Assembly (NCBI GenBank): GCA_036785375.1
Contig: JAWMAR010000030.1
Coordinates: 6,882,001 to 6,946,000 of the forward strand
DNA length: 64,000 bases
Direction of reading: 5' to 3'
DNA from: Leucoraja ocellata
Lineage: Eukaryota
The translations under genes and the position numbers were made by a program. Shown here one piece after another: positions 17,621 through 62,835 of the stretch (the first letter of the stretch is position 1; every line of letters begins with the position of its first letter). The notes beneath the pieces are model-generated. The model did no database searches. It was not told where the DNA came from and saw nothing but the letters and a program-made list of their open reading frames with translations.

Positions 17621-20593
17621 TTGTCCCAGCCCTTTTACAGTATATATTTTGAAGAAGGATATTTCAATCTGAAATATTCTCCTTCCACAGATGATGTCTC
17701 TTTTGCGGAATGTTTCTATCATTTTCTGGTATTATTCCAGAGTACAGCATCTGCAGTTTGTTGATTTTGTTTATTTTATCACCATGCTAATATGTTAAAA
17801 AAATGGTCTGAGAAATCATTATCTTCATAACACTTAATTACTTGTCAGAATGCCTATTTTATGAAAGAAAGTAGAGAAGCCATTTTGCAAAAGATATGAC
17901 AATGAGATGATGGGTCTCCTAGTAGGTTTGGACTTTTTTTATCCCACATTCCAAATGTTATACCCAACTCAAATTGTAGGCACAATTTTCAAAATTAAAT
18001 CATAATGCAGAGCTTATTCAACAGTCACATACTCGGAACTATAGGCAGACAACTTCAGCAAGACATGTATTGACCTCCAAATTTACCAACAATGATCAGA
18101 AGTTCCAGCCAGCATGTAATTGGATAGAATGGAGCATTTTTTAATATTTCTTTTTAAATAAATCTGACTGGAAGAATTGTCTGTATTTCACAGACAAGGT
18201 TAACCCAAGGATGTAATGACCATCATGCGTTCTCTCCACAAAGACTCTGTAGTCTGACTGCCTCTGGTCTTTCTAGAGGCTGTAAACAATTTATCCAGGT
18301 TTTGATAGGGCCGAAGTCTTCCTCATCACAACTTCTCCATGATAATCAATGTCATGGGATTAATTGAATTAGAGTGCACAGCTTTATTAGAAAGAGACTT
18401 GATTTGGAAGGGACAAACGATCGCCATAGCGTCAATTTATTGTATTATAAAAAAGGAAGAGGGGGTGGGGGGAAATGGTCTGGGACAAAACTAGACTGGT
18501 TGCAGAGAAACTAATAAGAGATTAGATTAATCAGTACATACACGGCCTATTACTCTGCTTGATCGCCCGGGTGAGTTGCTTTCGGAATAGGACTTAATTA
18601 TTGGGAGCTGGAGTAACAGTTAAGAATTAAGAGCTGTGCAACACCATCAAAACACAAATGCTGTAACGGCGCACAGCACTTTATTATGGTGTGCAGTATT
18701 TTCAAGCAACATTATATTGTGTAACTACAGTGTCTTACGTTGTTTATAATGTTTACATTATGGTAGTTGTGGTTTTGTTAGCTTCAACACAATAGAAGTT
18801 GTGCTGCCGCATGAGTTTTGATGGCGCTTTATTCCACCCTGATGGATTAAATAATGAACACAGGTAGCAGGTGTCAGCGAGACATACCCAAAGGACAACA
18901 GCAAATTTAAGCAGGTTGGAGAGGTGTCAAAAAGTTCCCATTTCTGTGCTAAAGTACTTACTTCCTGCCATGGTTGCATTTATTCTTTTCTATAGAATGA
19001 CAAAATTCTGAAATTTAAAGTACAAATGTACAAAAATGGGTGATTTAAGGAACTGCGCCAAAATAACTGAAAAAATGGGCTGAGATTTTTCAAACTTTAT
19101 AGTAGATTTTATGCTCAACATAGTAAATCACTTTTTTTTTTAAGTATATGTAAAAGAAATTCATGCTAAAACCAAATTCCCTTGGTTCATAAGGTGCGAT
19201 GGGAGATTCAAACAAAAAGCTATGACACCTGAAGAACATTTCACAACAAAGAACTGGTATAAAAACCAGGTCTTTTACCCTGGACAGTAGGTATCCAAGG
19301 GATGATTTCATAGAATTATGTATTTGAAACAGTTTGATTTCTATTACTGGCATCATAAATAATATCAGTAATTATGTGGGAGCTACGCACCACTTAGCCA
19401 TTCGGCCTTGTTGGTGAATGCATTGACGAGGCAAGGATTGCTGTATCCTCTAGTCCTCAGATCTGCTTTGCCCATCGAGACAGATTAATCTGCTTGTGAA
19501 AGAATGTTTTTATATAACTGGCCATTCTCTGCACTTCCTGAGTGAATCTCAACATCATTTGAATGCTTGGGTCATCCACCACCTTAAATGTACCTTTCCT
19601 TCACCATCAATTATCTGTGTTAATAAGCATTCTACTATTTATCCCTTTTATAGTTAGTTATGTAGGCTCGCATCATTGAAGGATAGTACCTTACACAACT
19701 GCTGGAGGCCAATACTTTTTTGTAGATAAAAAGGTACCATATAAACATACATGTCTGGAAAACAAAATAATAATATTCAACTTTCTGGAGGTGCTGTTCT
19801 GTGGTACATTGCGTACCATCACACACAAAAACCAGCACCGCTGATGGAAACTTACACTCCAATACTTATTTTTACCCCCAAAAAAATGCGTTCATTTCCC
19901 CAGATGAGGGTGGTCCTGATTAGGCCAGCATTTGTGTATCTACTCTAACTCCCATGAGAGTGTAATCGTGAGCTGCTGCCTTGAACTACTACAATCCTGA
20001 TAAAAGGTCCAACCACAAATTGTTAGTTTGGAGATTTTGGACCAAAACCGAGCAACAATGTAAGAATGGCGATAAATTTCCAAGAGAAAGTTATGTGCAG
20101 CTTGAAGGGGGAACCTGTGGTGGCATTCTTATGCCACTGACACCCATATCTTTCTTGATGTTGGAAGTGTTGGGTTTGGGACCATATTTATCTCAGCTTA
20201 TCTAGCTCAGCCTAGATAAATACCTGCACTGCATTTTGTAGATTGTACACAATGTAGCTATTATGCTTCAGTGAAGGAAACAAATGATCAGGAAACAAAT
20301 GCTCAGCATGCCCATCAAGTGGGATGTTTAATATTGAATCCCATTGATTTATTCATGCAAGTGCAGAGTACTCTGGTATATGCTTGAAATATGCTTTGCA
20401 GGTGGTGGAACATTTTTATGATATCAGAAGTGAATCGCCTGCCCCAAGATATCCAGCCTTTGACCTGTTCTATCTCCAGAGTATTTACCTGGCTGGTCAG
20501 TGGTCATTTCAAGGATTTAATGGCATGGACTCGACAATTGTTATAATTTGCTTCCATGGATGACAAAGAAACAAAATTCTATAGCTAACTGAC

Positions 20594-20608
20594 CTTAACA
20601 GCTGGTAA
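20594..20608 (-). CDS. ccser2: Candidate 15-nt ccser2 microexon (TTACCAGCTGTTAAG)
   Basis: tgcattttctccttctatccttttattttttcAG|TTACCAGCTGTTAAG|GTCAGT: about 30-nt pyrimidine tract, AAG|GTCAGT donor, 3n length, same strand as the gene. No transcript evidence. Confidence 0.55.
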
Positions 20609-22427
20609 CTGAAAAAATAAAAGGATAGAAGGAGAAAATGCACCAGAGATATCAGACAAATGGATGCCAGTCGGACTAACTCAGGAGAGAAGCAACATGA
20701 ATAATGCAGAATATACATAATCATGATCTCAACTAAGAAACTACAGAGAAAGGACAGAAACACTTAATAGTGTGGTTATGCTACGTTATGGCAGATGTGC
20801 ATCGCAGTAAATTTCAAATTATTTGAAACAAACAAACTCAGTAATTATATGTATTTCTAGGTCGAAAGTGTGCACAACAATGATGAATTTCAGCTGCGAG
20901 GGAAGGCACTGACCAAGCAGAAAAAAATCTCCTTAGTTACAAATATTGAAGAAGTCATCAACAAAATATGAGAGTGAGCAGAAATTATTTTAGCTAACCA
21001 ATTTAAACTATTAGCTTGACAATCTCTGCAATATAAGATGGAAGGACATGGAACAACCAATAATAACCATCTCAATTTTTCCTGGAGTCAATGGATTATC
21101 GCGTGGCATGCTTCATACCCATTGCATGTAATGCTCATTATAGCACCAACCTTGCAATGTTATCCTTTTAATTAAGTTAACAAGGAGTCCAGGTCATGTT
21201 CATCTGATCAGTGCCATGGAAGATTATACAAAATCCATATTTAACAATATTGCAAGCCCTCATGCAAAAAATAGTCCTTATCATGGATTCATAAGTGGAG
21301 TGAAAAAACTAGAATATACATACTGTGCCTAATGTATATTTTATGCACTGCGGTACAGTAATGTGTTGAGATTGTGCAGATTTTGTAAACTGCAGGATCA
21401 TTAAAGTAATGGTAACATTTTATACATTCCTGACTGTCCCATTCTTTACAACATCAATAATCTTGATGGCTATTTACTATTGAACCCATTTGTTGCCAGT
21501 GCTTCAATGAACAGTAACCTTGAGATTTATTAGAGTTGAGACCTTGCAGAGAGCATCTTAAGTTTATACACTAGATAAACTGACAGCCCATTTCTCAATT
21601 CATCAGTTAGGTTATTTTGTTGCTAAAGATGTCAAAGCCTCATACTGTGCTCTGTTCTTCAACTGCTCAATAACTTTTCAATCACAGTGGAGGAAACCTC
21701 AAAGACAGTACTCTATTACACATGTTAATGACCATTTACTTATCTCACTGCACAATGTATTTACCAAGTTCTAAAACTGTCACTAACACTGAACTTATTG
21801 AGGATTCATTAAAGTTTTCCTTAACTTAGAAGATTCAAATTCATTTATAATTAACAATGCGAGTGCCTTGCATATCTTTTGCAGGGCTTAAAATGCAACC
21901 AGTGAACCATGCACTTTTACCAAATAAATTGTAAGTGCTCCCCAGATAAGTATAACCCTATAACGAATCATACATCATATACATATCTTATATCAAGCAT
22001 GCCTAGGAATGTTCATAAACAATTTAAGTCAAAAGAATTGAAGAATTGGATGCAGTTAGTTGCATGAGTAAAAGTAGCTAAGTGCTTACTTGTCTTAAAG
22101 CTGAAAATATTTTTTTTTTGTATGAAGAGATAATTCCTCCCGATTTCAAGGGAATTGTATGGTTTCAATAGAATAACTTGCAACATATGGCATGATGACA
22201 TTGTTAGCAAAGACTTATACTAAATGACTTTTTTGAAAGAACTAATAACAAAACATCAATCAATTTTTGAGAAGCAAGAACACAATGTGAAAGTTGGATT
22301 TGTTTTTTTTTTATATATAGAAACCTACATAAGAGTGCCAGATCTTTAACTATGTCAAAGTAAGAGAGATTTCATGCTGTATCTCTGGCAGTGCTGTGTA
22401 AGTCTGACTGTAGAGTGTTACACTCAC

Positions 22428-22512
22428 TCTGTCGGCGATGCTGCTGGACAGGACCTGGGTTGCCATGGAACGTGGCCTGCAAGGGAGAGGAGGATGGAGC
22501 AGAAGGCCCAGC
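22428..22512 (-). CDS. ccser2: CCSER2 85-nt (3n+1) cassette exon, with an internal alternative acceptor giving a 49-nt form (22428-22476)
   Basis: Long pyrimidine tract ...ccttttctcctgcacAG|exon|GTGAGT; translates AGPSAPSSSPLQATFHGNPGPVQQHRRQ, similar to recalled human GGYSAPSFSPWQGSFQGIPRTVPPHRRQ. A second acceptor, cctcctctcccttgcAG, lies 36 nt inside. Confidence 0.85.
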
Positions 22513-30685: not shown

Positions 30686-33023
30686 ATTCTTATGATTTAC
30701 ATCGCAGGAACTTAAAATTCCATTAGCACAGATTGACAGATATAGGGTCTTGATGTGGTGGACAAAGTAAAATCAAGAAATCATAAGATGTCAGAACTGG
30801 AAGCGTTTAGAAATCATATTTTACCTTAGGGCTGGGGAAAGTTACGGAGACAGAGAAGTGGTAGTCAGAAAAGATTGGACAACGATGAGAATTTAAAAAG
30901 AATAGCAGCTGACAACAAGTACATAGGAAGGGAAGAGAAAAGTTGTAGAGAAAAGAGAGAAGTGAGCAGTTGTGGTGACAGCGAAGAAACAGGACCAAGC
31001 TCAGGCCAAGGGAAGCTAAGGTAAAAATGTGAATGTGTTTAGCCACAGGTCTAAAGGTGAAGTCAATTGCGAGAGAACAGGGTTTATTATAAGGATTATC
31101 AGGCAATCGTTTTAATCCCCACTATAGTTAATTGGAGCATTATTTATTCCAGACTAGGTAGTCTCTAAAATGATAAGTGATATTTGGTATTAATTAGATC
31201 TTCAAAATGGAAGGGCAGCTCATTGAAATGCATTTTGCCCCTCTAACCCACTCATATTTAACAGTCATTAGCTGCGCTAAATCTTCTCAACTAGTCGGCA
31301 CAATTACAAATTATATTTATTTTCACATATTCATAAACAGAATTCAAACCGCTGATTTATTTTGAATGTATTTACCTCGTGTTAAACCATGAATCTGCTT
31401 GGCCATCGTATTTTTTCGTCTGTGTTATCAGAGAACACACATGTGACACCATTGACATTCAGGGAAGTAATGCAACATTTTATTGATTATCCTGTGCTTC
31501 CTTCACAGTGTGGTACAATTCATGTACTCTTTGTGAGAACTTCAGACTGTCGGACTTTAGATTTTTACTGTTCCTCTTTCAACAGATGCTGCCTGACCTG
31601 CTGCTGTTCCCAACATTTTCTGAGTGAGTTAATCTCTGATGGGAATCTAAGAGGGCTCAACCATTTTAAGTGAATTATTACAATTTACAAATACTAGCAA
31701 ATTTACTCCAAAAATAATTCATAGCAGTCAGTGCTTCTAAATTTAGGATAGTCTCTGGCTCTATAACTTAAAAAAAAAAGTTAGTACGAGTCAAAGCCAG
31801 ACATCTTCCAATAATTAGGCCTAAGTCATACTGTATGACCAACTTGTCATCTTTCTTGTTCCAGTCTCTGAAACCGTAAAAGATCAGGATTAACTGCAGA
31901 CCGTTCTTGCTTGGTAGTCGCTCAATGAAAGTAACAATTTTTACCACCTCCAATAAAATGCATCTCCGCTGCTTTCATTCAGGCAGAAATTCAATTAGAT
32001 TAAAATTGCTGTTGTGTTTGAACTGGGATAACAACCATTAACACAGGGCTGCAGAAGCTCACCGTGTCACAAATTATTTCCAAGGTTCTGAATGAAAGAA
32101 GGGAATAGAGCACAACCATACCAGTAATAAACCAGCTTTGAAATGTAGAGGACTAACAACTACCTGAACAAACAATAAATCATGAGAATTCAATATTATA
32201 TTCAATAATACCACCTTAATGTGGCTATCTGTATCTGTATCTGTATCTTAATCAAATTAATAGAACACAGTGTTTCTAATGTTCTATGATACAAAGGGTA
32301 ATAGAATATTATCAATATTGCAAATAATGTAATTATTTGTCACTTCAAATATGGTTTGACATTGAACCTGACCAACAAAATGGTTTCTTCTCTGCTTTAG
32401 TTCACCCAAACTAAACTGAAGATATCCTGAACAAATTCTTGGTAGGCTTGACCCATTGTAGAAAATGACTCTGAATTTTGCAAAATTAGCAGGCATCAAG
32501 AAGGACCAATAGCAAAATGAGTCAAAAGAAAAAGAAAAAAAAAATCATAGCAAAACAACGGATTATGTTGGGGGCTTTTAAAATCCATGTTGCAAAATTG
32601 AATACAGTGAGTCTTACTCTACACGTGAAACAGCCCACAGACCAAGTTCAATGAATCCTACTGCAATCTTCCTCACCTAGACCTTGTAGATTGTCCTGTA
32701 CTGTGGGTGACACAGAGAACCTAGCTGCTGTAGGACACATACAACCTATCCCAATGTGAATCAGGTACGTAATCTACTTTTTATGGACCAGCCACTGTTG
32801 ATCAAGTTCAATGATTTCATCAAATTTCTGCTCAACCCTCTTTGCTCCAATGAAGAATATTCCAGATTCTTATATGTAACCTTACCAGTGAAATTGATCA
32901 TTCTTGAAACCATCTTAGTGATTTTTTTCCTGCATTCTCTCTCTAGGATGCTTCTAAAGTTAGGTGGGTAGGATCAGAAGCAATATTTCATTTGTGTACA
33001 AACCAGCCTTTATTTTTAAAAGG

Positions 33024-34978: not shown

Positions 34979-35077
34979 GGATATTCCTTTAGTGACTGTT
35001 TGGGTGGTCTTATCGGCATTAGAACACGCTGGTCCTTTTGTGGCTGAATTTTCTTTCCGGCAATGACATCTGGTGCT
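34979..35077 (-). CDS. ccser2: CCSER2 internal coding exon, 99 nt, phase 0-0, with DKTTQT (LC8/DYNLL-type motif)
   Basis: ttttttccttatatacAG|exon|GTAAGT; translates STRCHCRKENSATKGPACSNADKTTQTVTKGIS, in phase with the 52.7-kb exon. Similar to recalled CCSER2 ATQHICHQKCKEEKCTYADKYTQT. Confidence 0.88.
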
Positions 35078-52703: not shown

Positions 52704-52790
52704 CAGTTGTTGTTGTAAATAGTCAATCATCTGATCTTTTCTTTTCATTTCCTCTTGCAAAATCTGGATCTCTCCAAGTAGCTCATCAGT
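52704..52790 (-). CDS. ccser2: CCSER2 (coiled-coil serine-rich protein 2 / FAM190B) internal coding exon, 87 nt, phase 0-0, coiled coil
   Basis: Minus strand reads ttgcttttcttcttgtccAG|exon|GTGAGT and translates TDELLGEIQILQEEMKRKDQMIDYLQQQL. This resembles the CCSER2 coiled coil as I recall it (NEDLL.EIKQLKDEIKKKDEKIQLLELQL) more than CCSER1. Confidence 0.9.
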
Positions 52791-61187: not shown

Positions 61188-62735
61188 ATGTGGCGTTACC
61201 TGAAAAATGGGGCAAACCCAAAGGATGAGGCAGCAAAAAGAAAAAATGAAATGGATAAAGAGTATGAGGATGAGAAAAGGTCAAGAAGTTATGGGAACGT
61301 GTTCACAAATGGTTGAGGTAGGATGAGAAGGGGAGATGTTCTGCCACTTGTGCAGGGAGGCAAACGTGGCAGAATATGGTTTTTAATGGTGGCACGAATA
61401 TTATATTTATATTTTTTCATACATCAGGAAGTCAACGCCAAACATGTTTGAATTTCAAGCACAGTTTCAGGGAGATCTGACCGGCAGCACCGACATTGAG
61501 GCTAGATTGCATGACATGAGTGACAGAGTCTGCGAGGCAATGAAGATTGTCAGCTTCAACTTCTGGCCAGAAGGCAGACTATCAGGTGATATTTCAGCAA
61601 GAGCAATGTTGCAAAATTTTCATGGGCATTTTTTAAAGTATGATGTATTGCATAGTTTTGTTCAGTATGTTTAATTCAATTCATGTCAAAGTAATTAATT
61701 TTAATTGCAAAAGCCTAGTTCTTGCAGCCCCCCTTGTAGCTTACAATAGGAGTCAGATATTTTTAATACCACTGTGGAGGAAATTTGGAGCAAATCTTAA
61801 TGTATGATTCACTGTATGATTCTCTCTGAATTTGCTGCACGTTACTTCTTTATAAAGCTTTCTTGTAAGCTACAATGGATCATAATCTAAACTTTACCGT
61901 AAAGGCAAAATTACAACTAGTCTATAACAATGATTACATACTTGAGATTTTATATAAAAATATAGGAAGATATTCTGCACATTGACAGTGTCACCAGTTG
62001 ATTAAGTACAACATAAGTTCAAAGTTTGTGCCCTAAGCGCTAGTAGTTGACTGAGTCAATATTTATTTTGTTTATTTTCCGCAGATTTCGGAAATGAAGC
62101 TGTCCAGTCACTGGCACAGCACTCAAGGGCAGCCTAACCACAGTACACGTGAACCAAGGAAACTGGGAATAGAGTGGGACCTCCTGAAAGCGAGGATGAG
62201 TTCCCAATCAAAGTAAATGTTCAAATATTCATTTAAATTATCCAGTTGTAATATTGCCATACCTTTGAAGAATTCAAAACTTAATTTAATAAATATTTTC
62301 ACGTGACAAGTCTGATTGTAATACGTTTTAATGACTCTATATAGCTTCAGCAAGAAGGCCCTGACCTGGTCAGCCATCATCCCTGTGAGGAAAGAAAAGC
62401 TACCCAACATCTGCACTCTTCTTGACCTCGTCCTTACCACACGGGCAAGTTCAGCTGAGGCGGAGCGAGCCTTCAGCCAGCTGAAGACCACCATCAGAAG
62501 ATCCCTCCAGATTGACGGGGTGACAGACCAGCTCCTCAAGATTCTGCATGGCAGTAACATCAAGGACTTTGATACTCGGCTAGCCATCAGCTTGTGGCAT
62601 GCAGGAGGGATGAGGGCAAGGATGCCTGACATGGGAGAGATCCCAGCTGCAGCATCTGCCTCTGGACCTCACTCTGACAGTGACAAGTCTGATGAGGAGG
62701 ATGCTCTGCTCGAGAGCGACAGACGACAATTAAGT
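61188..62735 (+). pseudogene. Decayed, internally deleted, intron-containing hAT-family transposase (ZNF862-like) gene
   Basis: N-terminal remnant MWRYLKNG...KWLR*DEKG/MFCHLCRE (Zn-finger-like); middle IEARL.D..V.EAMKIVSFNFWP|DFGNEAVQSLAQH..IEWDLLKARM; C-terminal dimerisation motif PNICTLLDLVLT..ASSAEAERAFSQLK..IRRSL. Contains frameshifts and stops. Confidence 0.85.
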
Positions 62736-62737
62736 GA

Positions 62738-62835
62738 TGTTTCCTTCGCTCCATAGATGCTGCCTCACCTGCTGAGTTTTTCCCAGCATTTTTGACTACC
62801 TTTGATTTTCCAGCATCTGCAGTTCCTTCTTAAAC
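62738..62835 (-). mobile_element. Penelope-end fragment inserted at the 3' end of the hAT ORF
   Basis: tttccttcgctccatagatgctgcc...gcatctgcagttccttcttaaac. Confidence 0.85.

Follow-up and report, generated by a model that had tools for sequence, protein, structure and literature searches.

A 15-nt AG-GT pair in a long intron of skate ccser2 is likely a pseudo-exon, next to a C-terminal switch that appears to use other cassettes

In skate ccser2, the 15-nt stretch within the long intron that follows the 85-nt cassette exon, formerly proposed as a neural microexon with two readings, is likely a pseudo-exon. It would correspond to a chance AG-GT pair, probably skipped and free to mutate, with its donor gone from the second gene copy. 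The C-terminus of the protein is switched by the 85-nt cassette and a 40-nt cassette located further downstream, which set the frame, one of three, in which the terminal exon is read. We favor the pseudo-exon reading since the donor is lost in the second copy, the peptides of the stretch occur in 0 of 160 proteins, pairs of this quality are expected by chance at 0.74 per 64 kb, and the flanks are not spared from divergence; furthermore, another exon (40 nt, kept in both copies) supplies the second cassette, and a triple-coding exon has already been published for this gene. Against it stand the strong signals on a crude weight matrix (11.2 for the acceptor and 8.5 for the donor), the excess of such pairs on the sense strand (6 versus 1.9 expected), and the fact that the donor loss is a single event. 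The combinatorial switch sensed by the first-pass annotation is real, has already been described, and is made by another exon.

The window, i.e., the whole stretch of DNA analysed, comprises 64,000 nucleotides (G000:C30:6882001-6946000), and the candidate is read on its minus strand, from 20608 to 20594. The relevant features are the following:

Window 52704..52790, minus strand: 87-nt coiled-coil exon of ccser2.
Window 34979..35077, minus strand: 99-nt exon, phase 0-0, the last exon common to the three main isoforms.
Window 22428..22512, minus strand: 85-nt cassette exon (3n+1), shortened to 49 nt when the inner acceptor at 22476 is used; fits two annotated skate isoforms, of 845 and 848 aa.
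Window 20609..20642, minus strand: pyrimidine tract of the candidate, flush with the AG, with a TGC at -34; a 5-nt deletion lies inside the tract in the relative run X6.
Window 20594..20608, minus strand: proposed 15-nt microexon, for which a pseudo-exon is the likeliest reading; sequence and translations confirmed, peptides in 0 of 160 proteins.
Window 20588..20593, minus strand: GTCAGT donor of the candidate; both the second gene copy and run X3 read CTGC here, without GT.
G000:C30:6870017-6870056, minus strand: 40-nt cassette exon (L012), 32.5 kb downstream of the candidate and outside the window.

By sequence identity the gene is CCSER2 (ccser2), as had been proposed: the product of its terminal exon, which starts outside the window at C30:6856866, is 99% identical to a protein cluster whose named members are the CCSER2 of three skates, and the exons of the CCSER2 protein map in order across approximately 300 kb. 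On protein similarity, the organism is a skate. The 99-nt and 85/49-nt exons had also been correctly recognised, and match annotated skate isoforms. Shortened isoforms are present at the place matching the inner acceptor (22476) in crocodilian and mink models (P0097, P0101, P0112 and P0134), and this acceptor is probably ancient. On the plus strand, open frames at 61387-62756, with a presumed resemblance to a decayed hAT-type transposase, contain the top-scoring 120-nt exon-like stretch (62263-62382), which is absent from the annotated protein.

The splice signals ascribed to the candidate (a tract of about 30 nt, an upstream UGC and a GTCAGT donor, approximately 1.8 kb past the 85-nt exon) are all present. 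The candidate lies 1,820 nt downstream of the end of the 85-nt exon, and 26 of the 30 positions before its AG are pyrimidines in the minus-strand reading; the nearest TGC, and the only one within 45 nt of the AG, is located at -34, upstream of a pyrimidine tract running right up to the AG. In-silico joins reproduced both proposed translations: following the 99-nt exon, the 15 nt add LPAVK and keep the frame, and following the 85-nt or 49-nt exon they read ITSC and a stop. As described, this stop is found 1 nt before the junction, and it would be placed 41 nt before the last junction if the 40-nt exon comes next. Two other forms were tried and rejected: frame +2 could be opened by an 8-nt form that uses an AG at 20601, inside the candidate, yet the 40-nt exon already accounts for this frame, and a 120-nt form running to a donor at 20488 contains stops in every frame, with this donor altered in the relative X4. 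As a separate observation, the 7-mer TCAGTTA (minus strand) is common to the acceptor and donor of the candidate, 20 nt apart (window 20587-20613), and a small local repeat may be the origin of its AG-GT pair.

The chance expectation for such signals was addressed by scoring AG-GT pairs 3-27 nt apart with a crude weight matrix, built on consensus frequencies and not trained. On this matrix the candidate scores 19.7 (acceptor 11.2 plus donor 8.5). Pairs scoring at least 19.6 numbered 6 in 164 kb of the sense strand, 1 on the antisense strand, and 0 at ten loci outside the gene (200 kb of strands in total), with 1.9 pairs per 164 kb, or 0.74 per 64 kb, being expected from independent pairing of acceptors and donors. 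The sense strand holds an excess over both the expected value and the antisense count. In favour of the candidate, it is the only pair reaching both its acceptor score and its donor score, for which 0.59 pairs are expected, and the antisense strand and the outside loci hold fewer pairs. A TGC is located within 40 nt before the AG in 45% of 10,195 local AGs. An illustration of the background level is provided by a 25-nt AG-GT pair of equal score between the 99-nt and 85-nt exons (window 32063-32087, minus strand), for which no protein support was seen. The signals of the candidate are good, but one pair of such quality per window is ordinary, and the candidate is not clearly beyond chance.

The protein record was represented by 160 CCSER2-cluster proteins from chondrichthyans, amphibians, crocodilians and mammals, obtained by protein searches and cluster look-ups; the matches listed include 15 of 25 (skate cluster), 15 of 24 and 15 of 132 cluster members, and most entries are predicted models. 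Neither LPAVK nor QITSC occurs in these 160 proteins, among the matches listed. The junction is reached by 144 of them (16 fall short), of which 58 pass directly from the 99-nt to the terminal exon through the same spacer of 6 residues, 43 take the 85/49-nt exon and then frame +1, 27 carry a second cassette, the 40-nt exon (23 detected by pattern and 4 by eye), 5 are frog models with 3 additional residues at the junction, and 11 are other models. No 5-residue insert was found in 63 long-form junctions, nor any ITSC-like stop in the chondrichthyan, amphibian, crocodilian and mammal models examined, and the candidate is absent from the annotated isoforms of three skates and among the Logan skate proteins listed. 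Annotation pipelines often miss microexons; thus, the absence from 160 proteins is weaker evidence than it appears. A search for short proteins returned only P0137 (a gene model) and P0138 (an unspliced read-through). The electric-ray model P0086 stops 5 residues past the 85-nt exon with a peptide different to that of the candidate, and P0086, P0087 and P0011, which are electric-ray and skate models, finish in short, unusual tails past the 85- or 99-nt exon.

The assembly carries the whole gene twice, in mirror-image orientation. The second copy keeps the 15 nt unchanged but reads CTGC in place of GTCAGT, so that no GT is left. The AG and GT of the 87-, 99-, 85- and 40-nt exons show no difference between the two copies, and a substitution at 34992 marks the allele. 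The donor-less CTGC letters are also present in run X3 (public, same organism label), on contig 6, which spans the whole stretch; therefore, the donor loss is real and not an assembly error. X3 is a mosaic of both copy versions and may derive from the individual that was assembled, and so the donor loss counts as a single event; run X1 contains only the window version of the donor. The relatives X4 and X6 agree with the window at the donor positions, among the matches listed, and so the loss looks derived; at their divergence of approximately 3%, a kept AG/GT would carry little weight either way. Around the candidate, X4 displays at least 7 substitutions in 20500-20700 versus 68 in 2,401 overall, and X6 carries a 5-nt deletion in the pyrimidine tract; on these sequence comparisons, the flanks diverge at the local intron rate and are not spared.

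One alternative is a young, skate-restricted microexon, tolerated rather than selected, that GT-bearing haplotypes would include at a low level and that would be silent on the donor-less one. Its length keeps the frame, the tract and donor are strong in the window copy, X4 and X6 agree with the window at the donor positions among the matches listed, and neither product would be an NMD target under the 50-nt rule (stop 1 nt, or 41 nt with the 40-nt exon next, before the last junction); however, it is absent from the annotated isoforms of three skates and the Logan skate proteins listed, and chance accounts for one such pair per window, and we consider it unlikely. Rather unlikely, too, is a skate-specific microexon in the course of being lost, whose GT alleles would add LPAVK to the long form or, past the 85-nt cassette, a fourth C-terminus (ITSC-stop), with a segregating allele that has deleted the donor. 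If this were true, the heterozygote would constitute a natural allele-specific test, and a real 15-nt exon would be polymorphic and specific to its lineage, added to a switch that jawed vertebrates share. As a likely pseudo-exon, the candidate is of little consequence.

With respect to the second copy, the mirror likely reflects two haplotypes scaffolded head to head, the second copy being the other haplotype. It is improbable that this copy is a true segmental duplicate undergoing decay, whose donor loss would be uninformative on the first copy: the differences between copies, 974 substitutions (approximately 1.0%) and 173 gap openings (0.18%) over 97.7 kb, are high for alleles, but the mirror symmetry persists 0.1, 0.6 and 1.0 Mb to each side with a 200-N gap near its centre, the coding exons match in both copies, and X1 has the window version only while X3 mixes both. 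Even if the duplicate were true, the protein and chance evidence would be unaffected. At the scale of the contig, a mirror duplication of at least 2 Mb with 97-99% identity extends over approximately 5.66-7.67 Mb of G000:C30, with the 200-N gap at 6685159-6685358. Copy-number claims from this contig call for care, as it seems to hold both haplotypes.

Regarding the C-terminal switch, in-silico joins (skip, 85, and 85+40) reproduced the three annotated tails of 1096, 845 and 848 aa. Without a cassette, the terminal exon is read in frame 0, giving the 1096-aa form, which has an SRLP motif close to its end; inclusion of the 85-nt exon (or its 49-nt version) leads to frame +1 and the 845-aa form ending in RGPQ; and the 85- and 40-nt exons together (125 nt, 3n+2) lead to frame +2 and the 848-aa form ending in AAWEN. 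The proposal of two combining cassettes was correct in that two cassettes switch the C-terminus, the second one being the 40-nt exon and not the 15 nt. Instead of the up to four C-termini suggested in the first-pass annotation, the scheme gives three, since a 15-nt (3n) exon is unable to open the third frame, +2, and LPAVK leaves the C-terminus unchanged.

The 40-nt exon is identical in both gene copies. Its peptide, whose core in chondrichthyans is VVHYF, can be recognised in chimaera and as far as frogs, crocodilians and mammals. It displays a TGC at -6, a pyrimidine tract set back, and a weak AG context (score 2.4), features suggesting that it is likely an SRRM3/4-type neural switch for the third frame. 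In the catshark model P0041, this exon is extended and the reading goes back to frame +1. As to function, an SRLP motif is found at residue 1077 of the long skate form and in neither short form, and human Ccser2 tracks plus ends with the support of C-terminal SxIP motifs, according to the available text of PMC10486078; by analogy, both short forms would lose the C-terminal EB-binding motif and hence likely track microtubule ends less. The skate exon map behind the CCSER2 three-frame switch, and the 40-nt exon as a likely neural cassette, are by-products of this work.

The three-frame reading has been reported by Tress et al. (bioRxiv 10.64898/2026.05.28.727796), whose available text describes one CCSER2 exon read in three frames to give three C-termini. 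According to that text, each frame is conserved as far as jawed vertebrates, is under selection and has peptide support; brain-specific CCSER2 transcripts are cited as well. No literature pairing CCSER2 with a microexon was found in a search that left subscription journals and VastDB outside; Ccser2, Fam190b and Gcap14 are absent from the supplements of PMC4387716 (all but file 6) and PMC9303857 (all but files 13-18), and the word 'isoform' is absent from the main text of bioRxiv 10.1101/2024.06.13.598865.

Compared with known systems, SRRM3/4 microexons are described as highly conserved, with a tract set back from the AG and a key UGC tested between the tract and the AG, in the available text of bioRxiv 10.1101/2024.09.17.613571 and PMC12871342. 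The candidate is similar to them in its 15 nt, within the range of 3-27 nt between AG and GT in the window copy, and in its long pyrimidine tract, fairly strong donor and upstream TGC, but differs in that its tract touches the AG, its TGC is at -34, its flanks diverge and one version has no donor. Such microexons have a strong 5' splice site that is intact, while the candidate has a donor of 8.5 in the window copy and no GT in the second copy and X3, and no UGC lies between tract and AG; a looser rule, with the UGC between branch point and AG, may apply to the candidate, although 45% of local AGs have a TGC as near. The SRRM3/4-type identity originally proposed is not supported, in view of the missing donor of the second copy, the 0 of 160 peptides, the TGC placed 5' of an AG-abutting tract, and the diverging flanks. 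A conserved SRRM3/4-regulated neural microexon with the dual reading LPAVK or ITSC-stop is very improbable: the length of 15 nt, a TGC between the AG and a possible branch point (approximately -44, by eye), a UGC position that is no absolute requirement (bioRxiv 10.1101/2024.09.17.613571, available text) and the reported brain-specific CCSER2 transcripts (bioRxiv 10.64898/2026.05.28.727796, available text) agree with it, but the donor is destroyed in the second copy and X3, the 63 long-form junctions and the models examined hold no 5-residue insert or ITSC-like stop, respectively, the tract adjoins the AG instead of being displaced from it, and the flanks are unconserved in X4 and X6.

With its TGC at -6 and weak AG context, the 40-nt exon fits the SRRM3/4 architecture, as far as it is laid out in those texts, better than the candidate. 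Pseudo-exons in long vertebrate introns, the class to which the candidate likely belongs, present good-looking AG and GT at exon-like spacing, with no conservation or transcript support, and the candidate resembles them in its good AG/GT at such spacing. The long skate form shares an SxIP-type motif (SRLP, residue 1077) with human Ccser2, an SxIP plus-end tracking protein with two C-terminal SxIP motifs (PMC10486078, available text), whereas a pattern search found one motif in the skate terminal exon. Finally, the cassettes are not named, and no 15-nt exon is mentioned, in the available text on the CCSER2 triple-coding exon; the gene is the same, and the skate frames reproduce its three-frame reading.
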